Source: an uncultured Dehalococcoides sp.
GTDB lineage: Bacteria; Chloroflexota; Dehalococcoidia; UBA2979
Direction: 5' to 3'
Assembly (NCBI GenBank): GCA_964628985.1
Contig: CAZVNJ010000009.1
Location: forward strand, 66 to 64,065
Length of the DNA: 64,000 bases
The notes under the pieces are model-generated. The model was not told the origin of the DNA. It made no database searches and saw nothing but the letters and a program-made list of their open reading frames with translations. Numbering within the stretch: position 1 is the first letter of the stretch; the number at the start of each line of letters is the position of its first letter. Position numbers and translations under genes: made by a program. Below, in pieces: positions 8,502 through 61,109 of this stretch.

Positions 8502-8771
8502 CAGACACCTTCCTCCGCCGGAGGCGCATCCACGTCGAGGACGTTGCTTCTCCGGTGCGTGAAACGTAATTCGCGTGGGGTTCCGGTTCCCCCGACGTTC
8601 GTCAACCGTTGAAGGTGCCCAAAGGTCCCTCGGGGTTCCCTAGGGTCCTTCGGTAACCACGCCGCCAGGCGAGGTTCCCGGGCTCCTTGAATCTGCGGAA
8701 GCCGGGTCAGAGGTACGGATCGAATCTGACGGGCGCGGTGGACGTCCCGGCGTACACTCCGGCCGAAGTGC

Positions 8772-20673: not shown

Positions 20674-20838
20674 GTCTCCAACAACAGGTGATGGGCATCA
20701 GCGGATGAGCGTTTCCACTCCCATATTAGGCACGCGCACTCGCGATGGCGACAGTGCCCGCCTGGGCTGGAGTGTTCTGTGTGACGCCTCCCGACACCGT
20801 CAGGTTCCCGGCCCACCCTGGACCCGGCGTGCGAGGCC

Positions 20839-22366: not shown

Positions 22367-23353
22367 CTAGACGCCGACGAGGTGCAAGTGGCCGCGTCGC
22401 GGCGCTGTGCGTTGCCCTCCCCCGACCACGGCGTTGAGGACGGGTGGGGCGGTGACGCCCTCAAGGGCTGCCTCGAACGACCGCAGGAGGTCCGCTTCCG
22501 CGAAGAGATCCGCCGGCTCGATGCCGCCTCCGGCGATGGTGTCCAGCGCCTCGGAGACCGCGAGCGCCGTCGAGTCCGCCGGGACGAGCGGCACCGTCAC
22601 GATGCTGCCGCCTGTGCGCGTCGCCAGGGTGCCCCCGTAGGCGTCCCCGGTACCGGTAATCGTCGTGGTGAAGGAGGAAAGGACCACCTCGATGGCCAGG
22701 TGTTGAGACTGGCGCGCCGTGAGCAAGGCGGTTGTGCCGTCGTTGAATTCGACCTCCGTGACGATGGCCTGTGCTCGGCCGCGCGGCGGGCCATAGGCGT
22801 GCGCGACAACGCTCCGTGCGTGGGTGCCAGCGAGATGCGCCGCCAGCGTGGTCAGATCCCCGGCTGTGAGGCGCAGGTCCTCGGGTGTGTCGACCGTGAT
22901 CGAGGCGGTCCGCAGACGGGCAAGACTCCGGGCGGCCTGCATGGCCGCGGTGATCGGTGCCTGGTGCCAGAGCGGTCGAAGGACGGCGGCGGAGCCTCCG
23001 GTGCGCGCAAGCATCGCCAGCGTGTCAGGTTCCAGGGCGTCGCCTGTCAGCAAGACAGCGCTGCCGCGGCTGGCGGCGGCTGCGGCCTCCGTGGCGGCGT
23101 CGAAGAGGTCGAGCAGGACGGTCGAGCCCGGCCCTCGGCGGAGCATCTCGCGCGGGTGCTGGTAGCGCGCCGTGCAGGTGAGGCGGCCTCTGAGGGCGAT
23201 TGACGCGGCGGCGAGGGAAGCAGCCGACGGGTCACCGATGGCGACCGGGACGAACCGCTGCGCCTCGAGCGCGCGCAGGAGGGCAGGAGTGCGCTCGGTC
23301 CATCCGCAGATGGCGAGCGTGTCCAGCGTGGATGCGCCGAATGGAGCCTGCAT
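22367..23353 (-). CDS. Hypothetical protein with degenerate Gfo/Idh/MocA-like architecture, divergent from fliC1
   Basis: Rossmann-like N-terminus (LAICG...VAIGD) and beta-rich C-terminus, but no EKP motif. Start ATG 23353. Confidence 0.5.
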   Translation of the reverse strand: MQAPFGASTLDTLAICGWTERTPALLRALEAQRFVPVAIGDPSAASLAAASIALRGRLTCTARYQHPREMLRRGPGSTVLLDLFDAATEAAAAASRGSAVLLTGDALEPDTLAMLARTGGSAAVLRPLWHQAPITAAMQAARSLARLRTASITVDTPEDLRLTAGDLTTLAAHLAGTHARSVVAHAYGPPRGRAQAIVTEVEFNDGTTALLTARQSQHLAIEVVLSSFTTTITGTGDAYGGTLATRTGGSIVTVPLVPADSTALAVSEALDTIAGGGIEPADLFAEADLLRSFEAALEGVTAPPVLNAVVGGGQRTAPRRGHLHLVGV

Positions 23354-23514
23354 GGGGGGACGGTAGGAGCGAGCAACCGTGGCGCTGCATGGGGGAGACC
23401 CTGAGAGGTGAGGGTTGCGGAACCTGATCTCCCGCGCCGGTGCTCCTGTCGCCGGATCGCAGCGTGCGCACCGGTTCGAGGGTCGAGGTCCGGCAACACG
23501 TTTTCCCGGAGGCC

Positions 23515-23541
23515 TAAAGGCGGGTGGGTGGCTGCCGATGA
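23515..23541 (+). promoter_or_regulatory. Sigma28 (FliA/SigD) promoter of fliC1
   Basis: TAAA-N15-GCCGATGA matches the TAAA-N15-GCCGATAA consensus with one mismatch. Confidence 0.85.
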
Positions 23542-23590
23542 TGGCGGGTGAGGAGTGGTGGTGTCCGGAACCGCCGCGAGTCGAACCCAT

Positions 23591-23629
23591 CCGGCAGGGA
23601 CGCCGGGGACAACTCTGAGGCTTAGGAGG
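23591..23629 (+). promoter_or_regulatory. Putative CsrA-binding hairpin plus SD in fliC1 leader
   Basis: ccggc-AGGGAC-gccgg stem-loop, then ttAGGAGG SD. Confidence 0.55.
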
Positions 23630-23636
23630 CCGAACG

Positions 23637-24833
23637 ATGGCAATGATCATCAACACGAACATCGCTGCCCTGAACGCGCAGCGGAACCTGGGCACCACCA
23701 GCGCCCAGATGGGGAAGACCCTCGAGAAGCTGTCCAGCGGTCTGCGCATCAACCGCGCCGCGGACGACGCTGCCGGGCTGGTCATCTCCGAGAAGATGCG
23801 TGCCCAGATTCGAGGCATGCAGCAGGGTCTGCGGAACGCCCAGAACGGCGTCTCGATGCTGCAGACCGGTGAAGGCGCGCTGAACGAGGTGCACAGCATC
23901 CTCGGCCGCGTGCGCGAACTCGCTGTCCAGGCCAGCAACACCACCCTCTCCGCTTCGGACCGCGAGGCCATCGGTGAGGAAATGCTGGCCCTGCGCTCTG
24001 AGATCGACAACATCGCCACCCGTACCCGCTTCAACGGCCAGAGCCTCCTGAACGGATCGCTCGCGGTGACGCTGGACGCGGCGAACTCGACCGCGGACAC
24101 GGTGACGTACGCCAACGGTGGCGCGACGACCTCGGTCTCCTCGATCAACGTGGCGGACGCCACGGCTGGCGAGACCTACACGTTCTCGGCAGCCGGTGCG
24201 GTCCTGACCCTCACGCACGACGACGGCAACGGCTTCGTGCGGACGGAGACGGCCACGGTCCAGGCGATGGGCGCCAGCGGTTCGCAGGCGGTCATCTTCG
24301 AGGAACTCGGCGTCACCCTGAACCTGTCGCACGACGCGAACGCCGCCAACCACACGGGTGCGAACATCGCCAACGCCTTCGCCGCCACCACCGTGGTGAC
24401 CACGGGCAGCGGCAACGCCTCCTTCCGCGTGGGTGCGGATGTCGGTGACGACATCTCGCTGGCGTTCTCGGACATGCGCTCCAGCGCGCTGGGCAACGGT
24501 TCCAAGCTGAACACCCTGATCGCCGCGAACGACGCCGTGTCGACGGTGGCGAAGGCGGACACCCTGCTCGCGTCGGTGGACGCGGCGATCGACCAGGTGT
24601 CGACCTTCCGAGCGAAGATTGGTGCCCGGCAGAACCAGCTCGATGTGGCGACGAACTCCCTCGGCGTCTCGATCGAGAACCTGTCGGCGTCGGAGTCGCG
24701 CATCCGCGACGCGGACATCGCTGAACTGTCCAGCCAGATGATCACCAAGCAGATCATCCAGCAGGCCGGTGTGGCGGTCCTCGCGCAGGCCAACGCGGCC
24801 CCGCAGGCGGTGCTCTCGCTCCTCCGCGGGTAG
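23637..24833 (+). CDS. fliC: Flagellin (copy 1)
   Basis: INTNIAALNAQRNL, LSSGLRINRAADDAAGL, ENLSASESRIRDAD, VLAQAN. Confidence 0.97.
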   Translation: MAMIINTNIAALNAQRNLGTTSAQMGKTLEKLSSGLRINRAADDAAGLVISEKMRAQIRGMQQGLRNAQNGVSMLQTGEGALNEVHSILGRVRELAVQASNTTLSASDREAIGEEMLALRSEIDNIATRTRFNGQSLLNGSLAVTLDAANSTADTVTYANGGATTSVSSINVADATAGETYTFSAAGAVLTLTHDDGNGFVRTETATVQAMGASGSQAVIFEELGVTLNLSHDANAANHTGANIANAFAATTVVTTGSGNASFRVGADVGDDISLAFSDMRSSALGNGSKLNTLIAANDAVSTVAKADTLLASVDAAIDQVSTFRAKIGARQNQLDVATNSLGVSIENLSASESRIRDADIAELSSQMITKQIIQQAGVAVLAQANAAPQAVLSLLRG

Positions 24834-24913: not shown

Positions 24914-24952
24914 CGGGATTCTCCCGATGGGCGGCCCGCGCTGGCGCCGACA
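24914..24952 (+). promoter_or_regulatory. Conserved upstream motif plus sigma28-like -10 (methyltransferase promoter)
   Basis: GGGATTCTCCCGA-N18-GCCGACAG. Confidence 0.6.
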
Positions 24953-24994
24953 GACTGGCCGGGCAGGGCCCACACGGCCGGGTAGGAGCCATCG

Positions 24995-26296
24995 ATGGTC
25001 GCCGTCGAGCCGACGCGCACGCAGGCCGTGCGCGAGTCCGTCCACCAGCAGTACGAGTCGCTGCCATATCCGGCCCGCGACCCGGAAATGGAACTCGATC
25101 GGCTGCTCCAGCCAACGATGTGCGAACTACCGCGGGTGAACGCGATGCTCTGGGGCGGCCGGCGTGTCTACGACTCGACCTTCCGCATCCTGGACGCCGG
25201 CTGCGGCACGGGCGATGCCACGGTCTTCATGGCAGAGCAACTCCGAGATACCGGTGCCCGGCTGGTGGCGCTCGACCTGTCCTCGGCCTCGCTGAGCATC
25301 ACGCGGCGACGCCTGGAGAAGCGCGGGCTCGAGGGCGTCGTGGACCTCGTGCAGGCGCCGATCGAAGAGGCGCCGGGGCTGGGTCTCGGGCAGTTTGACT
25401 TCATCTCGACGTCCGGCGTGCTGCACCATCTGCCTTCGCCGGAGATCGGGCTGCGGGCGTTGCGTGAGCTGCTGAAGCCGGACGGTGCGATCGCGGTCAT
25501 GGTGTACGCGAAGTACGGTCGTGAGCCGGTGTACCTCATGCAGTCGCTGCTGCGGATGGTGGCGCCCGCCGAGTTTGGCGAGGAGCGCCGCCTCCGCATC
25601 CTGAAGCGGTCGCTCCAGGCATTGCCGTCTGAGCACCGGGGCGTCCGTGGGTTGTTGGACACCCCACTCTTCAACGCCGAGATCGCCCGGTCGGACGCCG
25701 GGGCCTACGACCTGCTGCTGCACTCGCAGGATCGGCCATACACGGTGCCCGAGATCTATGACTGGTTGAGCGGCGCAGGCATGCGGTTGCTCGATTGGGG
25801 CGTGCCGAAGGCGTACCGCCCGTTGACGTACTGGCCGGGCGCGGATCTCTCGCATCTCCCGGCAGAGGATCACGCGGTTGCGGCGGAACTGATGCACGGC
25901 CGGATGACGAAGCACCACTTCTTCGCCGTGCCAGCCGAGGCCTCGCCCCCCACCCAGCCAGCTGCCGACGATCCTTCCACGGTACCGACGTGGACGGCCT
26001 GGCAGTTCGACGTCCCCCTGGGACAGGCGCTCGCGCGGCCGGGGACACAGTTGAAGTTCGGAATGGGCGAGGACCGTCAGATCGTCGTGAATGGGGATCC
26101 GCTCAATCGCCGTCTCCTGGGCGCGATCGACGGGCACCGCGACGTGGGCACGATCCTGGAGGAGGCCTGGCGGGCCTTCCCCGCCCAGACGCCAGAGCAG
26201 ATCCGGCGTCGCTGGGTGGAGTTGTGCGAGGGGATGCGGGAGATCGCGGCCCTCGTGCTGTTCCGTCCCGCCGCCTCGTCCGGCCGGCCAGGCTAG
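24995..26296 (+). CDS. Class I SAM-dependent methyltransferase with C-terminal extension
   Basis: ILDAGCGTG motif I, SGVLHHLPSP, QYESLPYPARDP N-terminus, DLLLHSQD. Confidence 0.85.
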   Translation: MVAVEPTRTQAVRESVHQQYESLPYPARDPEMELDRLLQPTMCELPRVNAMLWGGRRVYDSTFRILDAGCGTGDATVFMAEQLRDTGARLVALDLSSASLSITRRRLEKRGLEGVVDLVQAPIEEAPGLGLGQFDFISTSGVLHHLPSPEIGLRALRELLKPDGAIAVMVYAKYGREPVYLMQSLLRMVAPAEFGEERRLRILKRSLQALPSEHRGVRGLLDTPLFNAEIARSDAGAYDLLLHSQDRPYTVPEIYDWLSGAGMRLLDWGVPKAYRPLTYWPGADLSHLPAEDHAVAAELMHGRMTKHHFFAVPAEASPPTQPAADDPSTVPTWTAWQFDVPLGQALARPGTQLKFGMGEDRQIVVNGDPLNRRLLGAIDGHRDVGTILEEAWRAFPAQTPEQIRRRWVELCEGMREIAALVLFRPAASSGRPG

Positions 26297-26339
26297 AGGC
26301 CGACCTTCAGGAACCGTCGCCGCCGTCGAGTATGGCGGT

Positions 26340-26576
26340 ATGACGCTCTCGATGCCCTGCGACGCCTGTAGCACGCCGCTGCGCCGTGACGTGGTGACGG
26401 TCAAGTTCACCACGAGCAGCGTGTCGTTCGGGACGGGCGGGCACACGCGACTCACACCCAACAGCCGTCAGGAGTATGTGGTCTGCCAGCGCTGCGCCTC
26501 CTATCTACAAGCGTGCATCGCGATGCTCGAGGGGCGCGTGAGCGCAGAGCCGCACAGTGTGAGGGAGATGGTCTGA
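26340..26576 (+). CDS. 78-aa putative zinc-ribbon protein A
   Basis: CDAC-x38-CQRC followed by an amphipathic helix. Confidence 0.65.
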   Translation: MTLSMPCDACSTPLRRDVVTVKFTTSSVSFGTGGHTRLTPNSRQEYVVCQRCASYLQACIAMLEGRVSAEPHSVREMV

Positions 26577-26821
26577 TGAGCCCATCCTTCTCCGCGTGCG
26601 ACCTCTGCCTGAGCAGCCTGGAGGGCCAGGTGACGGAGGTCCAGATCGCCCCGGCCCGGATGGTGCAACTGACCGAGGAGGGCAGCATTGCCCATCACTC
26701 GACGGGCCTGCGCAGTCTGAGGCTCTGCCTCCCGTGCGGCGACTACCTGGTGGCGGGGTTCGAGCGGCTGCTGAACGCGTACGGCCGTGGGCTCCCGGAG
26801 CCGGAGCGCCTCGCGGGTTAG
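26576..26821 (+). CDS. 81-aa putative zinc-ribbon protein B (probable paralog of A)
   Basis: CDLC-x39-CLPC followed by a helix; TGATG stop/start overlap with protein A. Confidence 0.65.
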   Translation: MSPSFSACDLCLSSLEGQVTEVQIAPARMVQLTEEGSIAHHSTGLRSLRLCLPCGDYLVAGFERLLNAYGRGLPEPERLAG

Positions 26822-26858
26822 GCGGGTTAGGGAGCCGCGGGCGCTCGCCGTCTGGTGA

Positions 26859-27536
26859 CTACTTGAAGCGCTCAAGCCAGCGGTTGGCGCGCTCGATCGA
26901 CTTCGGTTCGTCCTTGTAGATCGAGTGCCCGATCCCGGGGTAGATCTCCAGTTCCGCGTTCGGGATGCAGCGGTACATGATGACGGAGCCGCCCGCGGGA
27001 GTCTGCGTGTCCGCGTCGCCGACGAGGATGAGCGCAGGCACGGTGACCTTCTTCAGCCCCTCGTCCATGCGGTAGCGGGCCACCGCGCGGTTCGTCTCGG
27101 CCATCGGCAGGTTGCCGGCTGCCTCAAACTCTTCGGCGCGCTTGAGCCACCCAGCCGCCAGCGGACCGCCGACGCGGCTGGACGTGGCGAAGAGGATGAT
27201 GCCCTCGACGCGGTGGGGGAAGTCGATCGCGAAGCGCTGGGTGATTGCCCCGCCCATCGAGTGGCCGGCGACGATCGCCTTCTCGATGCCCAGTGCCTCC
27301 ATCAGCGCGTCCAGGTCCCGGGCCCAGGTTTCGAGGCTGACCGGCCCCGGTTCGCTGCCGCTCTCCCCCATGCCTCGCACGTCGTATGTGAGGTGGCGGA
27401 ACCCGGGGAACTGGGGCGTGGTCGTCTCCCAGGTCTCGAGGCGGGAGCCGATTCCGTGGACGAAGACGATCGTGCGGCTGCCCTCGCCGCTCAGCCGGTA
27501 GTGCTGCTTGATCCCATTGGCGGTGACGAACGGCAT
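26859..27536 (-). CDS. Alpha/beta hydrolase
   Basis: FVHG, YDVRGMG, GHSMGG nucleophile elbow, GHSI. Confidence 0.9.
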   Translation of the reverse strand: MPFVTANGIKQHYRLSGEGSRTIVFVHGIGSRLETWETTTPQFPGFRHLTYDVRGMGESGSEPGPVSLETWARDLDALMEALGIEKAIVAGHSMGGAITQRFAIDFPHRVEGIILFATSSRVGGPLAAGWLKRAEEFEAAGNLPMAETNRAVARYRMDEGLKKVTVPALILVGDADTQTPAGGSVIMYRCIPNAELEIYPGIGHSIYKDEPKSIERANRWLERFK

Positions 27537-27655
27537 CGGCTGTCTCCTCAGCGGCGACGCGCGGCGGCGGCCGCGGCTGGCGGAGTATACGCATGGCCCG
27601 GGGAGGCTGGCTGAATCTGCCGTGCTACATTTCCCGTCGGTCAGGGAGGCGCCCC

Positions 27656-28150
27656 GTGGCGGAGATCGACTCTCGCGAGTTCCGGAACTGGGGTGGTCGC
27701 TTTGCCACCGGCGTCACGGTCCTGACGGTGCAGGTGGGCGACCAGTTGCGGGGCATGACCGCCAACGCCTTCTGCTCCCTCTCCCTCCACCCCCCGTTGA
27801 TCCTCGTCTGCATCCAGCACGGCGTGTCGATGCACCCGTTTTTTGAAGTGGCGGAGTCGTTCGGCGTGAACATCCTGGCCTCCGACCAGCGCGCGGTCTC
27901 CGAGCTCTTCGCGCAGCACGGCGAGCACGCCGCGCCGATGGGCGGCCAGGCCTATCGCATCGGCACCCTTGGTGCACCACTACTGGAGGGTGTGCTGGGC
28001 TGGGCGGAGTGCCGCGTCGAGGACCGTTACGCTGGGGGCGACCACATGATCGTCATCGGCCGCGTGGACTCGATGGCGGTGGAGCGGCCCGAGGCTGGCC
28101 CATTGCTCTTCTACTCAGGCAAGTACCGGGCGCTGGGCGACCTCGTCTAA
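27656..28150 (+). CDS. Flavin reductase family protein
   Basis: FATGVTVLT, GMTANAF.SLSL.PP, GGDH.IVIG, PLLFY.G.Y. Confidence 0.9.
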   Translation: MAEIDSREFRNWGGRFATGVTVLTVQVGDQLRGMTANAFCSLSLHPPLILVCIQHGVSMHPFFEVAESFGVNILASDQRAVSELFAQHGEHAAPMGGQAYRIGTLGAPLLEGVLGWAECRVEDRYAGGDHMIVIGRVDSMAVERPEAGPLLFYSGKYRALGDLV

Positions 28151-28193
28151 GACGCGTCCCGCTCCATCTGAGGGAGCAGGCGTCCGCAGCCGC

Positions 28194-28233
28194 GGGTACT
28201 CCCCGATACGGAGGGCGCCACACGCGCCGATAG
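28194..28233 (+). promoter_or_regulatory. Conserved upstream motif plus sigma28-like promoter (SLT gene)
   Basis: GGGTACTCCCCGA-TACG-N15-GCCGATAG. Confidence 0.7.
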
Positions 28234-28271
28234 CCTGACTCCGCGACGTGTGCACGTCGCGAGGAGAGCGC

Positions 28272-29348
28272 GTGGACGCACTGTCCCCCACCGGCCCCGG
28301 CGGAGCGGCGTCCCACGAGGTCGCCCGTACGGCCTCGCCACCGGCGCAGGCCGCCTCGTTCGCGGCAGTCCTCGAACGGCGGATCGCTTCGGCGCGGTCG
28401 GAGATCAACGGCGTGCGCGCGGAGATCGCTTCCCTGCGAGAGGGAGGGGCGCGGGCGCTCGCCGCGGGGGCCGCTGGCCGCGCCGCCACGGACCGCACAC
28501 GCCCGATGTCGATCGCGGACGTGGCCGCCCGCCTGAAGTCCATGTCGACGGGTGACACGGCTGATCCATATGGCTGGCGGCAGATGGCGCGCAGCACCGG
28601 CGAGTCCGTGATTGGCGCGGGATATGGAGCCATCTTCGAGCGGCAGATCCAGCAGGAGTCCGGCTTTGCCCCAGACGTCGTCTTCGGACTGCGCAAGTCC
28701 TCGGCGGGCGCGGAGGGGATCGCGCAGTTGATGCCCCAGTACTACCCGAACGTGGCCCGGTCTGATCCGCAGGCCGCCTTGCTGGCCGGGGCGCGCAGCA
28801 TGGAGCACTACCTCAGTGCATGGGACGGCGACGTCCGGAAGGCGCTAGCTTCCTACAACGCAGGGCTGGGCAAGGTTCGGCAACTCGTCGGCGCGCACGG
28901 CGACCGCTGGGAGAGCGCGCTGCCGATGGAGACACGGCAGTACCTGGCGGCCATCCTCGGCGACATGCGCCCGATGTACACGAAGCCCTCCAGCACCGTC
29001 GCCGTGTTTGGCGGGCGCGGCCCGGGCGGCGTCCTGACGATGCCGGTCGACCGCACCGGCAGCCGTCCGTCTGGGGATTCGCTGGACCTCTTCGCGCGTG
29101 CCGGCAGCCCTGTCCGAGCACCGGCGGATGGCACGGTGCGCGGTTCGTCTGGGAACGGCACCGTCACGATCGACCACGGCAACGGATGGCAGAGCACACT
29201 CGGCGGTATCGAGGGCAGGCTGCCGTCTGACGGCGCCTCGGTCAGGCGCGGCGATGTCCTTGGTGCTGTCGGAGAGGACGCAAGAGTCGTGCTTGGCCTC
29301 ACGCTCAACAGCCGGCCGGTGGAACCGCAGCGCTATCTGATCGGTTAG
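28272..29348 (+). CDS. Lytic transglycosylase (SLT) fused to degenerate M23 domain
   Basis: IQQESGF (catalytic Glu), GIAQLMP, ASYNAG, ETRQY; then GSPVRAPADGTV, IDHGNGW, VRRGDVLG. Confidence 0.82.
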   Translation: MDALSPTGPGGAASHEVARTASPPAQAASFAAVLERRIASARSEINGVRAEIASLREGGARALAAGAAGRAATDRTRPMSIADVAARLKSMSTGDTADPYGWRQMARSTGESVIGAGYGAIFERQIQQESGFAPDVVFGLRKSSAGAEGIAQLMPQYYPNVARSDPQAALLAGARSMEHYLSAWDGDVRKALASYNAGLGKVRQLVGAHGDRWESALPMETRQYLAAILGDMRPMYTKPSSTVAVFGGRGPGGVLTMPVDRTGSRPSGDSLDLFARAGSPVRAPADGTVRGSSGNGTVTIDHGNGWQSTLGGIEGRLPSDGASVRRGDVLGAVGEDARVVLGLTLNSRPVEPQRYLIG

Positions 29349-29420
29349 GCGGCCGACCGCTCGCGCGGTCCGGGCGGATTCCGGTAGCGCGGGGTGGATG
29401 CTACGATCGGCTGCCTCCGT

Positions 29421-29497
29421 GGTGGGTGTGGCCTAGCGGTTAGGGCGTCAGGTTGTGGCCCTGAAGATCGGGGGTTCAAATCCCCTCACCCACCCCA
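29421..29497 (+). tRNA. tRNA-His (GTG)
   Basis: Cloverleaf with GTGGGTG/CACCCAC acceptor stem, encoded G-1 and C73, TCAGG-TTGTGGC-CCTGA anticodon arm, GGTTCAAATCC T-arm and encoded CCA. Confidence 0.96.
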
Positions 29498-29604
29498 TGT
29501 GACCTGCCACCGCCGCGCCCGACACCGTGATCGAATCCGGCGGCGGGCGCGGCGGTGCTACACTTCGACTAGAAAGCACCCCACCTCCACCGAAGGACAC
29601 AGAC

Positions 29605-30732
29605 GTGCGGCGCGGACTCCTCGCCCTCCTCGCCGTGCTTGCGGTCATGCCGCTCGCGGTAGCCTGTCAGCAGGACGCCCCCGGTGGTACACCCCTGACC
29701 GAACGCTGGCTGCGCGTCGGCGAGGCCCCGAATGCCGAGGTCACCGTCTACGAAGAGAAGCTCCCGCCGAACCTCGTAGAACTCCTCAACCCAGGTGTGA
29801 CGAATGACGCCGACAAGGTCCAGTTGCCGGTGCACCCCAGCGGCAAACTGGTCGGTTCCTATGTCGTCCGCAAGCCGGACGGCAGCCACCTGGTCTGGCT
29901 GATCTATGACGTCGCCGAGGGTCCCGCCGCGGTGGTGAAGCGTGTGCAGGAACAATTGGACGGCCGTCCCTGGCAGGTGGTGGGCGCGCAGGCAGACGCT
30001 TCCGGCACGCTGCTGCGCTTCCAGTCCTCCACGGGCAGCGATGTCCAGGGGACGGCGATCGTGAACCAGCGGCCGGGCGCCAGCACCTACGAACTCGTCG
30101 TCGAGCGCGGTGGGAAGCGTTCGACGTTGAAGGTGGACCGCGGCAGCACCGTGCCTGACATCGCTGCCTCGCTCGGGGACGACCTCGTGGTGAAGCGAGT
30201 CGACCCCGGAGCCGCCAAGGCTGCGGGCCTGAAGGAAGGCGACAAGATCGTGCGTGTCGGCGGCACCGACGTGACGGACCGAAAGTCGCTCGCCGCGGCC
30301 CAGCAGGCGATCGCGAACGAAAAGAGCCCGAGCACCAGCGTGACATACGTGATGCAGGTGGCCCCGTCTGTCCCGGTGGACGCCCCGGTGTTCGCCGAGC
30401 CGGTGACACTGACTCTGCCTGACACCTTCCCGGTGAGGGGCTTCTTCGACCCGCTGATCGTGACCGAGTTCCAGTGGATCCAGCAGCCAGGAGCCTCGGG
30501 GTACTCGGTCTCGGCCGTCTCGAAGGACGGCAGCACGGCGCTGGCTGGTCGGCTGCGCGACGCGCTGCAGAAGGACGGATGGCAGATCCTGCAGGACGTG
30601 CCGTCGGGCGGCTCCACTCAGATGCAATTCCAGCATTCGGACGGGCGGTCCGGCGTAGCCGAAGTGACCCCGTTCGAGGCGGACTCTGCCTACACACAGG
30701 TGAACCTGCAGGTGCAGACCGGCCAGGGGTAG
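29605..30732 (+). CDS. Lipoprotein with central PDZ domain
   Basis: LAVAC lipobox; VKRVDPGAAKAAGLKEGDKIVRVGG is PDZ-like. Confidence 0.72.
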   Translation: MRRGLLALLAVLAVMPLAVACQQDAPGGTPLTERWLRVGEAPNAEVTVYEEKLPPNLVELLNPGVTNDADKVQLPVHPSGKLVGSYVVRKPDGSHLVWLIYDVAEGPAAVVKRVQEQLDGRPWQVVGAQADASGTLLRFQSSTGSDVQGTAIVNQRPGASTYELVVERGGKRSTLKVDRGSTVPDIAASLGDDLVVKRVDPGAAKAAGLKEGDKIVRVGGTDVTDRKSLAAAQQAIANEKSPSTSVTYVMQVAPSVPVDAPVFAEPVTLTLPDTFPVRGFFDPLIVTEFQWIQQPGASGYSVSAVSKDGSTALAGRLRDALQKDGWQILQDVPSGGSTQMQFQHSDGRSGVAEVTPFEADSAYTQVNLQVQTGQG

Positions 30733-30754
30733 TGCCGATCGCGCGGAGGGACGC

Positions 30755-30793
30755 GGGGTCTCCCTGATCCCGGCGGTCCGCCTGTTCCGAAAT
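30755..30793 (+). promoter_or_regulatory. Conserved upstream motif plus degenerate sigma28 -10 (fliC2 promoter)
   Basis: GGGGTCTCCCTGA-N18-TCCGAAAT. Confidence 0.5.
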
Positions 30794-30807
30794 CATCTCC
30801 CGGTAGT

Positions 30808-30839
30808 GCCGCGGCATGGACGCTGCGGCCCACCGGAGG
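30808..30839 (+). promoter_or_regulatory. Putative CsrA-binding hairpin plus SD in fliC2 leader
   Basis: gccgcggc-ATGGAC-gctgcggc stem-loop with ANGGA loop, then cGGAGG SD. Confidence 0.6.
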
Positions 30840-30843
30840 TCGC

Positions 30844-32043
30844 ATGTCGCTGCAGATCAACACCAACGTCACGGCGCTGAATGCCCAGCGCAACCTGGCC
30901 AGCACCAACCGCCGCCTCGGTGGGCTTTTTGAGAAGCTTTCCAGCGGCATGCGCATCAACCGCGCGGCCGACGACGCGGCCGGCCTCGCGATCTCCGAGA
31001 AGATGCGCGCCCAGATCCGCGGCATGCAGCAGGGCCAGCGCAATGCGCAGGACGGCATCTCCATGCTGCAGACCACCGAGGGCTCGCTCAACGAGGTCCA
31101 CAACGTCCTCCAGCGCATCCGCGAACTCTGCGTCCAGGCCAGCAACACGACGCTCTCTGCCTCCGACCGGCAGGCCACGGGCGAGGAACTCCTCGCGCTG
31201 CGTTCCGAGATTGACAACATCGGCAACCGCACCCGCTTTAACGGCCAGCAACTTCTGACTGGCGCCCTCGCCGTCAGCCTGGACGCGGCGAACTCCACCG
31301 CGGACACCGTGAGCTACGCCAACGGCGGTGCCACCACCTCCGTCTCCTCGATCGACGTGTCGAAGGCGGACCCCGGAGAGACGTACACGCTTTCGGCGGC
31401 CGGCGCGGTGCTGACCCTCACCCACGACGATGGCTCCGGGTTTATCCGGAACGAGACATTCACCGTGCAGGCGATGGGCGCGAGTGGTTCCCAGGCCGTG
31501 ACCTTCGAGCAACTGGGCGTCACCCTCAACCTCGTCCACGACGCGAATGCCGCCAACCACACCGGCGCCAACATCGCCAACGCGTTCGACACGACGACGG
31601 TTGTGACCGGCGGCGGCGGCAATGCGCGCTTCCGTGTCGGCGCCGACGTCGGCGACGACATCTCGCTCGCATTCCAGGACATGCGGTCGAGCGCCCTTGG
31701 CGACGCGAACAAGCTCGACACGCTGATCGCGGACAACGACGCCGTCTCCACGGTCGCGAAGGCGGACACGCTCCTCCAGTCCGTGGATGCCGCGATGGCC
31801 CAGGTCTCGCTGTTCCGCGCGAAACTCGGCGCGGCGCAGAATCAAATGGATACGGCGGTGAACAGCCTCGCCGTCGCGGTGGAGAATCTCTCCGCCTCGG
31901 AGTCCCGCATCCGCGACGCAGATATTGCCGAGGTCTCGAGCAAGATGATCGCCCAGCAAATCATGCAGCAGGCCGGCGTCGCCGTGCTTGCGCAGGCGAA
32001 CACGGCTCCTCAGGCGGTGCTCACGCTGCTCCAGGGCCGCTAA
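30844..32043 (+). CDS. fliC: Flagellin (copy 2)
   Basis: Same D0/D1 motifs as copy 1; collinear paralog. Confidence 0.97.
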   Translation: MSLQINTNVTALNAQRNLASTNRRLGGLFEKLSSGMRINRAADDAAGLAISEKMRAQIRGMQQGQRNAQDGISMLQTTEGSLNEVHNVLQRIRELCVQASNTTLSASDRQATGEELLALRSEIDNIGNRTRFNGQQLLTGALAVSLDAANSTADTVSYANGGATTSVSSIDVSKADPGETYTLSAAGAVLTLTHDDGSGFIRNETFTVQAMGASGSQAVTFEQLGVTLNLVHDANAANHTGANIANAFDTTTVVTGGGGNARFRVGADVGDDISLAFQDMRSSALGDANKLDTLIADNDAVSTVAKADTLLQSVDAAMAQVSLFRAKLGAAQNQMDTAVNSLAVAVENLSASESRIRDADIAEVSSKMIAQQIMQQAGVAVLAQANTAPQAVLTLLQGR

Positions 32044-32102
32044 GGTCGCCAGGCAGGTCGCAGGCCGCGCGGCGCGATCGCGGGCAACCCTTCGCGATCC
32101 TC

Positions 32103-32143
32103 GGGTTTCCCCCGAGACGGACGCCGGCCCGCAACGCCGATGA
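32103..32143 (+). promoter_or_regulatory. Conserved upstream motif plus sigma28-like -10 (flaG-fliD promoter)
   Basis: GGGTTTCCCCCGA-N20-GCCGATGA. Confidence 0.62.
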
Positions 32144-32202
32144 TCCGGACAGGGATGCCCGTGCCCGCGGCGTGACGGCACGCCTCGACGGGGCCCGCAA
32201 GG

Positions 32203-32547
32203 ATGGCCGCGATGGCCGACATCAAGATCGAACGAGGGCCCGCATCCATCGGCCCGGCCGCGGTCACGCCGGACCAGCGGCGCGGGAGCGGTGGGGGCGG
32301 ACGGCGGGACTCGGGCGATTCCGGTGCCCAGCCGCCGGGAGTCGAGGAACTCGCGCTGGCGCTGCGCGAGGAGGGGCGGAAGCACCTCGTCGCGCGGCTG
32401 GTGACGGATGAGTCGGGAGAGACGCGCGTGCGGATCGTGGACACGGACCGGGACGAGACCGTGGCGGTGCTCACACCGGACGAACTGCGGATCCTGGCTG
32501 CCCAGACGGGGCTCCCGTCTGGCCTGCTGCTGCAGGCTCGGTCGTAG
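32203..32547 (+). CDS. flaG: FlaG-like protein
   Basis: C-terminal VRIVDTDRDETVAVLTPDELRILA...G.L; lies between flagellin and fliD. Confidence 0.7.
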   Translation: MAAMADIKIERGPASIGPAAVTPDQRRGSGGGGRRDSGDSGAQPPGVEELALALREEGRKHLVARLVTDESGETRVRIVDTDRDETVAVLTPDELRILAAQTGLPSGLLLQARS

Positions 32548-32556
32548 GGGGACGGG

Positions 32557-34944
32557 ATGGTCTCCGGAAGCGCCAACACCTCGGGCAACCGGATCACCTT
32601 CGGAGGGCTTGCCTCCGGCATGGACACGAACTCGATCATCAACCAGTTGATGATCGTCGCCGAGCGGCCGATCACACTCGCCGCGCGCCAGCGGTCCACG
32701 ATCGAGAGCAAGGCCGCCGCGATCGGCAAGGTCGCCTCGGCCCTCTCCGCGCTGCAGACCCGCGTGCAGGCCCTGAACACCTCCAACACCTTCCGGACGC
32801 GCGTGGCGAACGTCCTGGCCGCCACCGCGGACGCCAACAAGGTGAGTGTCACCGCGCAGCCGGGCGCCTCGGTAGGTGCGTTCACGCTCAGCGTGAGCGC
32901 ACTCGCCACGTCGACGCGGGTGACGAGCGCGCAGCCCGCCGGCGCAGCCGTCTCCACGGCGGCCCCGCTGGACGAGGCCGGCATGGTCCCGGCTCCCACC
33001 GCGGGCACGTTCTCCATCAACGGCACGGTCTTCTCCATCGATGCCGCTACCGCGCGGACGGTGACAAGTCAGTCCGCCGTCGGCGCTGCCACGACCTCGG
33101 GGACCGCGCTCTCCGCCTCCGGTCTGGACATCCCGCCCACGGCGGCTGGGACGTTCGAAGTCAACGGCGTCGAGATCACCTGGGCGGACACGGACAAGAT
33201 CAGCGACGTGATCGGCTACATCAACGCCTCCGCCGCCGAGGTCTCTGCATCGTTCGACGCCAATACGCGCCAGTTCACACTCACGCGGAAGACGCCAGGC
33301 TCTGGCGGCACGATCACCGTCGCCGATACGAGCGGCAATTTCCTCGAAGCGATGAAGATCGTCGACGGTGGAAACGTCGTAGTAGGTACTGAGACGGCTG
33401 GGACGGACATGCCTTCGCTGGCGGACATCGTCGCGGACATCAACGGCGCCGCCATCGGTGTGACGGCGAGCATCGAGGACGACGCGTGGGGGCGGCCGAA
33501 CCTCCTGCAGATTACAGGCGGCGCCCCGGTGCAACTCGGGTCCGCCGCGGACACCAGCAACTTCCTGCAGGCCGCCAGCCTGCTGGCATCCCCCGCAGGC
33601 AACACACGAGTGAGCCAGCGAGGCCTCGGCGGGCTCGACATCACCGCCGACCTGGCGGACGCACGCCTCGTGACGTCGCTCTCCCAGCCGGCCGGGTCGT
33701 TCAAGGTGAACGGCGTCGAGTTCACCTATGACGCCGCCGTGGACTCGATCAGCAACTTGATCTCGCGTATCAACTCCTCATCAGCCGGTGTGACCGCCTC
33801 CTACAACCCATTCGGCGACGGCCTCACGCTGACCAACAACGCCACCGGGGCGATCGCCGTGGGAGTCGAGGATGTGACGGGAAACTTCCTCGCCGCCGCC
33901 GGGATCATCGGCACGACGCAGACCATCGGGACCAACGCCGCCTACTCGATCGACGGCGGCGCCACCCGCTATTCCACGTCCAACGTCATCGAGGACGCCC
34001 TCACCGGAGTGGCGATCACCGTGCGAGACGTCACCACGCAATCCGTCAAAGTCGACATCACCGTCCAGACGCAGTCCGTCGTGGACGCGGTGACCCAGTT
34101 CGTCTCGGCCTACAACGACGCACAGAAGGTGATGACGGACCTGGCCAAGTACAACCCGGACGGTGCCAGCGGCATCCTCTTCGGCGACGGGACTGTCCGC
34201 CAGATCCAGGGCGGGCTGCGTCGACCGCTGACCAGCGCGCTCGCCGGAGTCGCTTCGGGGATCCGCACGCTGTCGGATATCGGCGTCTCGTTCGGCGCTG
34301 TGGGGTCGGCGGTGGGCTCCACGGACACGCTGCAACTGGACGCACAGAAGTTGATCGCGGCGCTCAAGACACAGCCCGAGGCGGTCGTGTCACTCTTCAC
34401 CGCCTTCAGCCCCAACGCCTCGCTCACCCCGGGCGGCACCGGGTCCATCGCCTCGATCAGCGGGACGCCGACCCAGGCGACGCGCACCGGCACGTACAGC
34501 ATCGCCTCGACGGCTGGCGGCGCATTGACGGCGACGTTCACGCCGAATGACGGATCGGCACCGGTCACGACGACCGGGACGATCACGGCCGGAGGGACGA
34601 ACACCACGCTGATCCCCGGGGTAACCCTGACGGCGGCGGGCGCACTGGTTGCCGGCACGGACACTGTCGCGATCGGGGCGACGCAACAGGGCCTCGCGCG
34701 GACACTGAGCGAGTACATCGGTGTCCTCACTAAGACCGCCGGCGTGCTGCGAGCACGCACGGACGAGATGCAGAACACTGTCAAGGACATCTCCGACCAG
34801 ATCGAGAAGATGCAGGCCCGGCTGGCCGTACGCGAGCAGCAACTGGTCAAGAAATTCGCTCAGATGGAAGCCACCATCGCACGGATGCAGAACCAGCAAA
34901 GCGCCCTCACCCGCCTCCAGCAGCAGACATCGAGCAACCAGTAG
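32557..34944 (+). CDS. fliD: Flagellar filament cap protein, expanded (795 aa)
   Basis: GLASGMDTNSIINQLM N-terminus; FVSAYND, GILFGD, LVKKFAQMEATIARMQNQ C-terminus; internal Flagellin_IN-like repeats. Confidence 0.93.
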   Translation: MVSGSANTSGNRITFGGLASGMDTNSIINQLMIVAERPITLAARQRSTIESKAAAIGKVASALSALQTRVQALNTSNTFRTRVANVLAATADANKVSVTAQPGASVGAFTLSVSALATSTRVTSAQPAGAAVSTAAPLDEAGMVPAPTAGTFSINGTVFSIDAATARTVTSQSAVGAATTSGTALSASGLDIPPTAAGTFEVNGVEITWADTDKISDVIGYINASAAEVSASFDANTRQFTLTRKTPGSGGTITVADTSGNFLEAMKIVDGGNVVVGTETAGTDMPSLADIVADINGAAIGVTASIEDDAWGRPNLLQITGGAPVQLGSAADTSNFLQAASLLASPAGNTRVSQRGLGGLDITADLADARLVTSLSQPAGSFKVNGVEFTYDAAVDSISNLISRINSSSAGVTASYNPFGDGLTLTNNATGAIAVGVEDVTGNFLAAAGIIGTTQTIGTNAAYSIDGGATRYSTSNVIEDALTGVAITVRDVTTQSVKVDITVQTQSVVDAVTQFVSAYNDAQKVMTDLAKYNPDGASGILFGDGTVRQIQGGLRRPLTSALAGVASGIRTLSDIGVSFGAVGSAVGSTDTLQLDAQKLIAALKTQPEAVVSLFTAFSPNASLTPGGTGSIASISGTPTQATRTGTYSIASTAGGALTATFTPNDGSAPVTTTGTITAGGTNTTLIPGVTLTAAGALVAGTDTVAIGATQQGLARTLSEYIGVLTKTAGVLRARTDEMQNTVKDISDQIEKMQARLAVREQQLVKKFAQMEATIARMQNQQSALTRLQQQTSSNQ

Positions 34945-34968
34945 CGCGGAGCGGCCGGGCCGCGTGTC

Positions 34969-35008
34969 AGGGTTTCCCCGAGGCGCAAGTGCCGCCTCCC
35001 GCCGATGG
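34969..35008 (+). promoter_or_regulatory. Conserved upstream motif plus sigma28-like -10 (fliS promoter)
   Basis: AGGGTTTCCCCGA-N19-GCCGATGG. Confidence 0.62.
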
Positions 35009-35071
35009 TTCAACTGACCGGCGCACTGACAAGGTGGACGCCGGCCGGGCTTCGGACGTACGGAGGCAGGA

Positions 35072-35494
35072 TTGAACCAGGCGGCGCAGAACACGTACCT
35101 CCGCATCCAGACGGAGACGGCCTCCCCGGGCCAGTTGGTCATCATGCTGTATGACGCGCTGCTGCGTGACCTCGCTCGGTCCGAGCAGGCGCTCATGCGG
35201 GCCGACATCGAGGGCGCCCACGCCTCGCTGCTGCGCTGTCAGGATGTGATCCTCGAACTGATCGCCAGCCTGGACATCGCCGGAGAGGGCGAGGCCGGCG
35301 TGCTGGCTCGTCAGATGGCCCCCCTCTACGAGTACATCTACCGCCGCACTCTGGACGCCAGCCTGCGCAAAGACGTCGGCCCGGTGCAGGAGGTCGTCCG
35401 CCTGGTGACACCGCTACGCCAGGCCTGGCAGGTCGCCCTGGAGTCACTCGCCCTCGAGGCGGGAGGAGCATCGATGGAGGCCATCCGTGGGTAG
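35072..35494 (+). CDS. fliS: Flagellin export chaperone FliS
   Basis: Y...QTETASPGQLVIMLYD, LYEYIYRR, LRQAW. Confidence 0.92.
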   Translation: MNQAAQNTYLRIQTETASPGQLVIMLYDALLRDLARSEQALMRADIEGAHASLLRCQDVILELIASLDIAGEGEAGVLARQMAPLYEYIYRRTLDASLRKDVGPVQEVVRLVTPLRQAWQVALESLALEAGGASMEAIRG

Positions 35495-35891
35495 CGCCGC
35501 TCTCCAGTTCGAACTGCTCCGCGAGATCTTCGACCTGGCGCGCGCGCAGCGCGCCAGCCTGGAGACTGACGACATTGACCGCGTGCTCGACCTGATGGCC
35601 GAGCGTGAGGTGCTCCTCGAGCGGCTGACCCGCGTCGCCGAGGCGCACGCCGAGGTGCCGGAGAACGTGGTGGTCTTTCCGCGCGCCGTGGACTCCATCC
35701 AGCAGGACGCCATCGCCCTTGACACGGTGATCCGGGGCATCCTGGAGCACGACCGGCAGAACGAGGCGTTGCTGTTGGAGAAGATGGCGCAGGTCCGCGA
35801 GGAACTGCCCCGCGTGCGCCAGGCATTTCGCGCGGCGGGCGCGTACCGCCCGGTGGATGAGGCGCCGGGCTACGTGAACCGTCGTTCGTAG
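35487..35891 (+). CDS. FliT/FlgN-like export chaperone
   Basis: Helical protein with DDIDRVLDLMAEREVLL; directly after fliS. Confidence 0.6.
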   Translation: MGSAALQFELLREIFDLARAQRASLETDDIDRVLDLMAEREVLLERLTRVAEAHAEVPENVVVFPRAVDSIQQDAIALDTVIRGILEHDRQNEALLLEKMAQVREELPRVRQAFRAAGAYRPVDEAPGYVNRRS

Positions 35892-35909
35892 CGCATCGAG
35901 GGCGCGGCC

Positions 35910-36605
35910 ATGGCTCAGTCCACCCCCGTTACCCGTCGGCACCGTCGAGGCACGCGCTGGGCCGCCGGAAGCGCGGTCCTGGTGCTCGCCTCCGTCACTG
36001 GCTTCGTGATGGCCGGCACGGGCATGGAGGCCGGGCCCATCTCCTCGGCCCAGCGCCAGGCTGCTGAGGGGGCGGCCGCCCGGATCGTCGCCGGCGGTGG
36101 CACCCGACCACAGGCCCAGGGCTGGCGGCCGGCATCTGTCGCCGAGTCCAACCCGATCGAGTTCGCAAAGGGCGGGAAGGTCCTGACCACCGCCTTCGCC
36201 AACCGTGTCGTCATCCGATCGGTCGGCATCGACGTGCAGGTGCAGCCCGTCGGCCTCGTCTTCACGCAGGGCAAACTGCAGTACGACGTCCCCTATGTGG
36301 AGGCCGGCCAGTACGTGGGCACCGCCCAGCCGGGCCGGCCGGGGAACGCCGTCATCGGCGGGCACGTGTCGAGGCGCGGCGCACCGGGTGTATTCGCGGC
36401 CCTGCCGAAAGTCGTCGCCGGGGATGTGGTGGAGGTCTTCAGGGGCGAACAAGTCTTCCGATACTCCGTAACAGAGATTCGCGTCGTCGCATCGGATGCG
36501 ACGAGCGTGATGAGTCAAACGCAGGATGCGACCTTGACGCTCATCACCTGCTTCCCAGACGACGGCCTGCGTGAGCGGCTCGTCGTGGTCGGGAAGTTGA
36601 TGTAG
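35910..36605 (+). CDS. Sortase within the flagellar operon
   Basis: N-terminal TM, PGRPGNAVIGGH, TLTLITC, RLVVVG. Confidence 0.85.
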   Translation: MAQSTPVTRRHRRGTRWAAGSAVLVLASVTGFVMAGTGMEAGPISSAQRQAAEGAAARIVAGGGTRPQAQGWRPASVAESNPIEFAKGGKVLTTAFANRVVIRSVGIDVQVQPVGLVFTQGKLQYDVPYVEAGQYVGTAQPGRPGNAVIGGHVSRRGAPGVFAALPKVVAGDVVEVFRGEQVFRYSVTEIRVVASDATSVMSQTQDATLTLITCFPDDGLRERLVVVGKLM

Positions 36606-36675
36606 CGCGGCCCTCGTGCCGCCCGGCCATCTGGTTGGGAGTACGATGGGCCAACGGTCGAAGGAGCATCCTGCG

Positions 36676-36939
36676 TTGGAAATTTCCGAGTCATCCGCGG
36701 CGCGTGTGCGCCGTACCGCTGACCCCCCTGCCGCCTCGCGGCGTCAGCCCTCGACGACCGCCGATGCCGCGGCGACGGACAGCATCGAGGTTTCACCCGA
36801 GGCTCGCGCCCTGGCCGGCGTGGACGATCTCACCCGCGCCCGCCGGGTCCAGCAGTTGCGCGCGCAGGTGGATGCCGGCACCTACACGGTGGACCCCACC
36901 GAGGTGGCACGTCGCATGGCGGAGCGCGGTGAGGCGTAG
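36676..36939 (+). CDS. flgM: Anti-sigma28 factor FlgM
   Basis: DSIEVSPEAR and RVQQLRAQVDAGTYTVDPTEVARRM. TTG start follows an AAGGAG SD. Confidence 0.85.
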   Translation: MEISESSAARVRRTADPPAASRRQPSTTADAAATDSIEVSPEARALAGVDDLTRARRVQQLRAQVDAGTYTVDPTEVARRMAERGEA

Positions 36940-37007
36940 CCGTCCTGCAGAGTCGCCAGACCGCCGCCCGGGTCGCGTCCCCTAAGGCCCCCGCGGAGAC
37001 GAGACGC

Positions 37008-37047
37008 GGGGATTTCCCCATACGGAGCCCGCGAGTCCGTCCGTACG
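37008..37047 (+). promoter_or_regulatory. Conserved upstream motif plus degenerate promoter (fliF operon)
   Basis: GGGGATTTCCCCA-TACG-N15-TCCGTACG; nearly the same upstream string as the SLT promoter. Confidence 0.5.
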
Positions 37048-37075
37048 CTCGACCGCGAGGTCAAGGAGTGTGCGC

Positions 37076-47316: not shown

Positions 47317-47400
47317 TCGAGGGAGCACCAGTCGCGGGAGGCACGTCGCCACCGGGCGCGCGCTGGCCCGCCTGGCCTCCACCCGGTCGAGGGGGATGAC

Positions 47401-58467: not shown

Positions 58468-58550
58468 TACTACATGCGGAGTCAATATGGGTTTAGGATG
58501 GACTGACCGCTCGCATCCGATGAGGGCGCCGGAGTCCGAGGAGGCACCGC

Positions 58551-60398: not shown

Positions 60399-60403
60399 CC
60401 GCC

Positions 60404-60871: not shown

Positions 60872-61109
60872 TAGCGGCGGGATCGCCGCCCTCCATCTCT
60901 GCATCGATCTCTACATCGAAATTGTCCGCGCCGTGCCCGCGGTAGACGCATCGGTTCGTGATGCCCGCGGGCTGGCCGTAACGCCTGCGGTGCGGGCCGC
61001 GAGGGATGCATTTGGAACGCCAGTCGTGAGGCTGACACGCCGGTGACAGCGCACGCACGCTCCAATGGACGCATGACGAGTTGCGCTCGCCCGACCGAAG
61101 GAGGCCATT

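Follow-up and report, generated by a model that had tools for sequence, protein, structure and literature searches.

Most flagellar promoters of the window analysed here (a 64-kb stretch of a contig from an uncultured Dehalococcoides sp., with a G+C content of 67-72% throughout) share a short box with the consensus GGGGWTTCCCYGAT, and this box is a real, strongly conserved, flagellum-specific cis-element. Orthologous genes of 12 syntenic genomes have it in the same position, and it also stands before flagellar genes in about 100 more distant Chloroflexota loci. Judging from its sequence, its spacing and its promoter context, we consider it reasonably probable that the box is the operator of a dedicated flagellar transcription activator of this Chloroflexota lineage; that a protein other than RNA polymerase reads the box, and that this protein activates, are what we infer beyond the element itself. 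An earlier sequence-only reading of the same DNA had pointed to six intergenic sites with a 13-bp motif, and had suggested that they bind an activator that works with sigma-28.

All six 13-mers of that reading are present, five of them at exactly the coordinates given and the first, GGGATTCTCCCGA, starting at 24915 rather than at 24914, and at all six sites the final A is followed after 18-20 nt by a (G/T)CCG(A/T) word, as had been described. Loose patterns of this kind are common in such a base composition (in this window of 69% GC, GCCGAT occurs 94 times and GGG-N3-5-CCC-N0-2-[GC]A 66 times), so that the pattern alone is weak evidence, and independent tests were therefore made. Expectation-maximisation (EM) motif discovery was trained on relatives only, using 40 upstream regions of methyltransferase, SLT, flaG, fliS and fliF orthologues; a first run that included flagellin promoters gave only the -10 word YCGATGATTC and was repeated without them. 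The resulting motif was GGGGATTCCCCGATG, and when the window was scanned with its matrix all six sites were among the nine best matches (19.3, 15.7, 15.3, 13.4, 13.0 and 12.5 bits), the other three being the fliS site read on the reverse strand, a new minus-strand site at 23388-23402, and a match within the fliD coding region. The last of these (34618-34632, plus strand, 12.5 bits) lacks a properly spaced -10 element and is probably due to chance. Six matches in the window reach at least 13 bits, versus 1.05 +/- 1.1 in Markov simulations, and at a threshold of at least 12 bits the box is present in 7 of the 12 intergenic regions inside the flagellar cluster and in none of the 13 outside it (Fisher p = 0.0016), even though the latter total three times more sequence. 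Motif discovery in relatives and an enrichment test against intergenic background had been proposed in the sequence-only reading, and these results bear out its motif. Outside the training set, 31 distant high-GC loci contained 37 matches of at least 13 bits, 26 of which fell in the 22% of the sequence that rough GC3-based gene calls leave uncovered (p = 7e-10); these matches stand before fliC, fliS and a regulator gene.

The gene order of the window is common to 12 loci of relatives (L001, L002, L004, L006-L011, L013, L018 and the fragment L003), in which the individual copies of the box can be followed. The best match in the window, at 19.3 bits, is the copy before the fliF...flgE operon (37008-37022, plus strand, GGGGATTTCCCCATA). 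The copy upstream of the gene for a peptidoglycan hydrolase with SLT and M23 domains (28194-28208, plus strand, GGGTACTCCCCGATA) scores 15.7-15.8 bits and has counterparts of 13.7-17.1 bits in 10 of 11 syntenic loci, while the one before the methyltransferase gene (24915-24929, plus strand, GGGATTCTCCCGATG, 15.3-15.4 bits) is kept in L004, L006 and L018. Before the second flagellin gene, fliC2, there is a copy of 13.4 bits (30755-30769, plus strand, GGGGTCTCCCTGATC), and in relatives this promoter takes the form GGG-N4-TCCCTGATCGG-N14-TCGATGAT. The fliS operon copy (34969-34983, plus strand, AGGGTTTCCCCGAGG) scores 13.0 bits on its own strand and 14.0 bits on the other, because the core is palindromic; it is kept in L002, L006, L009, L011 and L018, as well as before fliS in distant loci. 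The weakest of the six, upstream of the flaG-like gene and fliD (32103-32117, plus strand, GGGTTTCCCCCGAGA, 12.5 bits), is kept in L011 and L013, weaker in L002 and L018, and absent in L001 and L003. The seventh, newly found copy (23388-23402, minus strand, AGGGTCTCCCCCATG, 12.9 bits) precedes a gene at 22367-23353 that is divergent from the first flagellin gene, fliC1.

When 43 non-identical instances are considered together, the box reads G-G-G-G-(A)-T-T-C-C-C-Y-(G/C)-A-T, or in short form GGGG-N3-CCCC-GAT, with an 11-bp palindrome as its core and with the highest information at A12, T13, C8 and C9. Its G and C runs are kept as G and C, with no compensatory changes, and this base-specific conservation looks like that of a site read by a protein. 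Given the palindromic core, binding by a dimer is plausible; an extended palindrome, ATC-GGGG...CCCC-GAT, with half-sites about 10 bp apart, was considered and rejected, the 5' flank being G/C and not AT. The position of T13, 20 nt before CCGAT, is that of the T of TAAAG/TAAGG in fliC1-type promoters, and the box therefore runs into the -35 position. In genomes whose flagellar proteins are 30-83% identical to those of the window, the diverged spacers keep only the box and the -10 element, and in an alignment of nine fliF sequences the invariant columns from the one to the other are GGG, CC, CAT and G, followed by the C, T, A and T of the -10 region.

The sequence-only reading had assigned all six promoters to sigma-28, and the conservation of the -10 elements in orthologues speaks against this. 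The flagellin, flaG and fliS promoters do keep CGA (as YCGATGAT or GCCGATGG), which is the sigma-28 signature: the -10 of fliC2 is TCCGAAAT (30786-30793, plus strand; TCGATGATTC in orthologues), that of the flaG-like/fliD operon is GCCGATGA (32136-32143, plus strand; CCGATGAT, CCGATAAT or CCGACAAT in orthologues), and that of the fliS operon is GCCGATGG (35001-35008, plus strand), with CGA kept in 8 of the 10 loci compared. The promoters of fliF, SLT/M23, the methyltransferase and 22367-23353, on the other hand, keep T-A-N3-T or C-A-N3-T (TACGCT, TAGGCT, TAGCGT, TAGCAT, CAGACT). At fliF the element is TACGCT (37044-37049, plus strand), of housekeeping type, with T-A-N3-T invariant and CGA absent in all nine aligned sequences. 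The SLT/M23 promoter has TAGCCT (28231-28236, plus strand), which overlaps the last base of a GCCGAT word (28226-28231); TAGnnT is found in all 10 orthologues with the box, and GCCGA is not kept. For the methyltransferase the likely -10 is CAGACT (24951-24956, plus strand), 25 nt after the last C of the box, since its orthologues keep CAGACT, CACACT or CACATT and the GCCGAC word at 24946-24951 is not conserved. The gene at 22367-23353 has TACCGT (23360-23365, minus strand) with its ATG (23353-23351) 6 nt later, and its mRNA is predicted to be leaderless. Five orthologues of this gene likewise have TAnnnT, GAGACT or CACACT and then, after 6-7 nt, the ATG that opens the conserved N-terminus, and the same distance separates hexamer and ATG in the SLT orthologues of L007, L008 and L010. 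Such would-be leaderless mRNAs identify the hexamer as a housekeeping-type -10. The sigma-28 assignment thus holds for three of the six promoters, fliC2, flaG and fliS, and fails for fliF, SLT/M23 and the methyltransferase, and an activator binding the box would work with sigma-28, as had been proposed, but with the housekeeping holoenzyme as well.

None of the box promoters has a TTGACA-like or TAAA-like word at the proper distance. At the six sites only T13 of the box occupies the position of a TAAA-type -35, in agreement with the sequence-only reading, and the only full -35 in the window is that of fliC1, whose canonical sigma-28 promoter (23514-23541, plus strand, CTAAAG-N14-GCCGATGA, with CTAAAG at 23514-23519) has no good box. 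The displaced copy that had been described there, at 23498, is indeed degenerate (5.0 bits); in relatives the fliC1-type promoter is GGGrAnaCCCC-TAAGG-N15-CCGATGAT. If the leaderless ATGs are taken as transcription starts, the centre of the palindrome lies at -43/-44, and with starts placed in this way the arrangement is that of class II activator-dependent promoters, in which a site near -41.5 abuts or overlaps a weak or absent -35 at a fixed spacing. An activator-dependent geometry had already been put forward on the basis of the first six sites, and the spacing proved to be fixed to +/-1 nt when 173 non-redundant matches of at least 12 bits were collected from all high-GC loci. In 49 of them a TAVNNT hexamer follows the last C of the box, after 25 nt (29 sites), 26 nt (17) or 24 nt (3), and in 17 a YCGATRV word follows after 22 nt (11 sites) or 23 nt (6), where about 0.3 per position would be expected by chance. 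There is also a second discrete class, in which seven non-redundant sites stand 49 nt before YCGAT, i.e. 27 bp further upstream; here a perfect copy (18-19 bits) precedes a complete sigma-28 flagellin promoter (CTAAAG/CTCAAG, N15, CCGATAcT), and the intervening sequence is unrelated between lineages.

One may also consider that the box is not bound by a separate factor, but is an intrinsic element read by RNA polymerase, such as a lineage-specific extended -35 or a UP-like sequence, with sigma domain 4 and/or the alpha C-terminal domain making the contact. This would account for the +/-1 nt spacing to the -10, for the asymmetry of the box, and for the fall of its most informative positions, A12 and T13, on the first position of the -35, and it would require no regulator gene, none having been found in the window or in the cluster of its clade. 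However, 24-26 nt separate the end of the CCCC run from the -10 hexamer, and the GGGG half extends to about -48, a position that exceeds the reach of sigma domain 4. Moreover, two -10 types, hence probably two sigma factors, share the box, and since TAnnnT and CGA are each invariant behind it, domain 4 of a single sigma factor cannot explain it. Nor would an intrinsic element be expected at the seven sites that are shifted upstream by 27 bp, ahead of a complete sigma-28 promoter, or to be missing from all 13 non-flagellar spacers of the window, and a G/C-flanked palindrome with an A/T core of only 3 nt is unlike the A/T-rich UP elements, which led us to reject that form of the explanation. Taken together, the two -10 types, the far end of the box and the 27-bp shift argue for a separate protein that would contact RNA polymerase, and we regard an intrinsic element as rather unlikely.

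It is similarly improbable, in our view, that the box binds a repressor, or another occluding DNA-binding protein at the -35, with activation left to the sigma factors alone. Repressors do bind in the -35 region that the site overlaps, fliC1-type promoters of relatives have the box abutting a good sigma-28 -35 that should need no help, and the window's own fliC1 has lost the box while retaining a consensus promoter. Yet most box promoters have no recognisable -35, so something must compensate; repression requires neither a spacing fixed to +/-1 nt nor a second discrete position 27 bp upstream, and strongly expressed flagellin genes are among those preceded by the box. The weak -35 together with the tight spacing favours activation over repression. 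As for a box with no DNA-binding role at all, either a chance G+C-rich sequence or a small hairpin (a terminator remnant or RNA element), the 66 loose GGG-N3-5-CCC-type matches in a 69% GC window and the ability of the palindrome to form a 3-7-bp stem might suggest it, but we attach almost no probability to it. Chance is excluded by the enrichment, the conservation before orthologues and the spacing statistics, and a terminator or structured RNA was rejected as well: the folding energy is near that of shuffled sequence (z +0.5 to -2.4), there is no T-run, no Rfam family matches at the box (only the tRNA-His was found in 20-50 kb), the G and C runs are conserved without compensatory changes, and the inferred transcription starts are downstream of the box.

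If an activator does bind the box, it would sit about 43 bp upstream of the start, with the 3' GAT in place of the -35, and from this class-II position it would recruit RNA polymerase to promoters that have no usable -35. The housekeeping-type box promoters (TAnnnT) would then serve early and accessory genes, namely fliF...flgE, the SLT/M23 hydrolase, the methyltransferase and 22367-23353, and the sigma-28-type ones (YCGAT) would serve the late genes fliC2, flaG-like/fliD and fliS-fliT-sortase-flgM. The protein would act from a class-I-like position in certain relatives, whose box stands 27 bp further upstream, ahead of a complete sigma-28 flagellin promoter. The housekeeping type of the fliF, SLT and methyltransferase -10 elements implies that such a factor would work with two holoenzymes.

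Three kinds of protein can be named as candidates for this factor. One is an atypical OmpR/PhoB-type winged-helix protein of 225-232 aa, linked to flgM in the more distant lineages; it matches PF00486 only, aligns over its full length to response regulators such as DrrD, and has Ala at the position of the phospho-acceptor Asp. Its family has no curated NCBIfam model and is sharply bounded, with 13 clusters below 1e-30 and generic OmpR proteins beginning at about 1e-18, and wherever the context extends far enough to reveal the gene upstream of it, that gene is flgM, with one exception; some contexts have the order NarL-type regulator, sigma factor, flgM, OmpR-type gene. The exception, P0127, follows a Usp gene and is on record only in assemblies of raw reads. 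All 10 genome loci have the box before the flgM-linked OmpR-type gene, as do 40 of 54 metagenome loci at a threshold of at least 10 bits, versus 1.3% of random 160-nt windows, with a TAnnnT-like hexamer some 22 nt beyond GAT in most of them. A box on the gene's own promoter fits an autoregulated master regulator. The second candidate is another atypical OmpR-type protein, this one of the window's clade, whose gene (L005, L155) has as neighbours a third flagellin gene, the che operon and a kinase-regulator pair resembling DegS/DegU; the third flagellin gene has a 17-bit box, and none is found before the OmpR-type gene itself. The third candidates are the DegU-like NarL-type regulators that adjoin either of the atypical OmpR-type genes. 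None of the candidates is encoded in the window. In L081, L151 and L154, where a group-3 sigma gene adjoins flgM, box-like words (GGGGTTCTCCC, GGGTTTTCCCTAAGG) were also seen before the NarL-type regulator and the sigma-28-like gene (L081 1185-1290, L151 at about 8640-8680, L154 at about 8670-8700), i.e. within the module formed by the regulator, fliA, flgM and the OmpR-type gene. The regulon may include its own regulators. In L081 and L086 a DsbA-like gene is convergent to the flgM-linked regulator.

Several observations weigh against an activator operator, or at least against the flgM-linked protein as its reader. The +/-1 nt spacing fits an element read by RNA polymerase itself just as it fits an activator site, and nothing on the 5' side mirrors the 3' GAT, an asymmetry unusual for a simple homodimer site. 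The Pfam scan of all open reading frames (ORFs) in the window revealed no obvious flagellar regulator, and neither tblastn nor a profile hidden Markov model found a homologue of the flgM-linked protein in the window or in 13 loci of its clade, where the box and then fliF occupy the usual position of that gene; an exhaustive profile search, together with the contexts of 10 clusters, placed the family only in other clades. Proteins of the OmpR family usually read 11-bp direct repeats, whereas the box is an 11-bp palindrome; its position matrix has no direct repeat with the 11-bp period of an OmpR/PhoB-type operator, but the inverted repeat GGGG-N3-CCCC plus GAT instead. Finally, the specificity of the box was judged on about 40 kb of non-flagellar window sequence and on locus flanks, all loci having been collected via a flagellin or a regulator. 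On the other side there is a precedent for such a protein: OmpR/PhoB-family activators are known to act at the -35 region, and the atypical HP1043 is a symmetric dimer that acts independently of phosphorylation at sites overlapping promoters (PMC8345958). A more far-reaching scheme, which we offer tentatively and hold to be possible rather than probable, is that in flagellated Chloroflexota (the Dehalococcoidia as defined by GTDB, and neighbouring groups) the whole flagellar programme would be under a single phosphorylation-independent OmpR/PhoB-type master activator, linked to flgM (and fliA) and autoregulated through the box, which would dock at about -43 with both holoenzymes (at about -69 at some flagellins), its gene having been moved or replaced in the clade of the window.

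The genes served by these promoters were identified by Pfam scans. Downstream of fliC1 (23637-24833) come a class I methyltransferase (24995-26296, plus strand), an alpha/beta hydrolase on the opposite strand, a flavin reductase, and the SLT/M23 peptidoglycan hydrolase (28248-29348, plus strand); a tRNA-His (29422-29497, plus strand) lies within the flagellar cluster, between the hydrolase and a PDZ protein gene. They are followed, all on the plus strand, by fliC2 (30844-32043), the flaG-like/fliD operon (32203-34944; a small gene in the FlaG position, then fliD), the fliS-fliT-sortase-flgM operon (35072-36939; fliT is FliT/FlgN-like) and, from 37070, the operon fliF-fliG-fliH-fliI-fliJ-flgB-flgC-fliE-fliK-flgD-(TIGR02530)-flgE. 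The anti-sigma-28 factor gene flgM (36616-36939, plus strand; PF04316, E = 3.8e-11) is the last gene before the fliF promoter and is kept in relatives, and no sigma factor gene was found among the ORFs of the window in the Pfam scans. The remaining genes encode transporters and metabolic functions. Among one-genome-per-species GTDB contigs, the nearest flagellins belong to metagenome-assembled genomes (MAGs) of Chloroflexota/Dehalococcoidia, with a best identity of 73-74%.

As regulators, the Pfam search returned only an HxlR-type protein far from the cluster (58524-58901) and a protein with a cyclic-nucleotide (cNMP)-binding domain and DUF2225 (47317-48537, plus strand), encoded 50 nt after flgE and not preceded by a box. 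In Leptospira, motility was recently shown to require a DUF2225 protein (PMC12236494), and the protein of the window may be a cNMP-responsive motility factor. In L003 (1580-2338) the N-terminal part of fliD apparently runs directly into the C-terminal part of the cNMP/DUF2225 gene, reflecting either a deletion of the whole fliD...flgE block or a mis-assembly of the MAG. A regulator hidden in the spacer after the DsbA-like gene (60399-61076) was also considered, but a membrane protein is encoded there instead: the region 59652-60871 (plus strand) contains the DsbA-like thioredoxin gene and then a small membrane protein that resembles a VKOR-type partner. Sortase genes were seen both in the flagellar cluster (35910-36605, plus strand) and beside it (19972-20697, minus strand), and the sortase directly upstream of flgM is kept in nearly all Chloroflexota flagellar loci examined, which suggests a cell-wall-anchored flagellar or accessory component in monoderm-type cells.

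The minus-strand gene at 22367-23353, a member of the box regulon, encodes a 328-aa protein of no known family, with no sequence match in Pfam, NCBIfam or PDB. It adjoins fliC1 in eight genomes of the clade (L006-L011 and L013 among them), and the box is present in the clearer cases, L007 and L008 having 13-bit copies in the same place. Its N-terminus (xxLAVYGW...AVAIGD) is loosely like a Rossmann-type start. As it has no DNA-binding signature and no match in these databases, it was rejected as the regulator. The leaders of late flagellar genes share a further word, GCAGGGAC(G), seen at about 23590-23610 for fliC1, at about 32148-32158 for flaG, and in fliC2 of L002 and L018. The leader of Bacillus hag carries a CsrA-type (GGA) binding site, and the word could be such a site; neither csrA nor fliW was seen in the window.

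We found nothing in the literature that describes flagellar gene control in Chloroflexota, and no published description of the box in work on Chloroflexota flagellar regulation, on DUF2225 or on the atypical OmpR precedent; the one paper found on Dehalococcoidia flagella, which deals with Tepidiforma, whose strains are cultured and motile, is confined to listing gene clusters (PMC10284905). With one short box shared by early and late promoters, whichever their sigma type, the regulon would be defined directly from sequence, and it already takes in the leaderless 22367-23353 protein, the methyltransferase and the peptidoglycan hydrolase. The box is a concrete bait for the regulator, and in these high-GC MAGs it is of practical use for recognising promoters and leaderless starts during annotation. 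An activator acting through it would add to the few cases in which a sigma-28 holoenzyme is assisted by an activator (PMC2859248).

The box does not match the FlhDC or CtrA sites, in keeping with the sequence-only reading, which did not recognise in it the site of any described flagellar regulator, but it does have partial parallels. CtrA of Caulobacter and Rhodobacter is a master activator of the response-regulator type, whose sites overlap the -35 of early flagellar promoters used by the housekeeping holoenzyme, and the box resembles CtrA sites in being one motif that is common to many flagellar operons and overlaps the -35. However, CtrA is a phosphorylated cell-cycle regulator of Alphaproteobacteria with the consensus TTAA-N7-TTAA, to which the box is unrelated, and the box is found on late promoters of sigma-28 type as well. 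Enterobacterial FlhD4C2 is likewise a master activator of flagellar operons with sites upstream of and overlapping the -35, in this case of sigma-70 class 2 promoters; these sites are long (about 40-50 bp), A/T-rich and imperfect, unlike the box, no flhDC homologue was seen here, and the phylum is a different one. In replacing the -35 at a fixed distance from the -10, the box is reminiscent of the pho box and of activation by OmpR/PhoB proteins through sigma domain 4. The pho box, however, consists of two 11-bp direct repeats, and the box is an 11-bp inverted repeat plus GAT. The best candidate resembles the atypical orphan member HP1043/HsrA of Helicobacter in being an OmpR/PhoB-family winged helix with a degenerate receiver domain, but HP1043 reads TTTAAG-N5-TTTAAG (PMC8345958), and the candidate is missing from the clade of the window. 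With respect to the FliA/SigD/WhiG consensus, TAAA-N15-GCCGATAA, or xT(C/A)Ax-N16-GCCGA in Actinomycetota (PMC13595943), the fliC1, fliC2, flaG and fliS promoters conform in having a CGA -10, fliC1 matches the full consensus, and flgM is present; in contrast, the box lies outside this consensus, upstream of its -35, and the fliF, SLT, methyltransferase and 22367-23353 promoters have no CGA. A further parallel is provided by aer and trg of Escherichia coli, sigma-28 promoters at which CRP binds at -49.5, in a study that stresses how few such cases are known (Hollands et al. 2009, PMC2859248). There, as proposed here, a separate activator aids the sigma-28 holoenzyme, but CRP does so at two promoters only, whereas the box, with its position nearer by about 6 bp, occurs on the majority of flagellar promoters, whether of sigma-28 or of housekeeping type.

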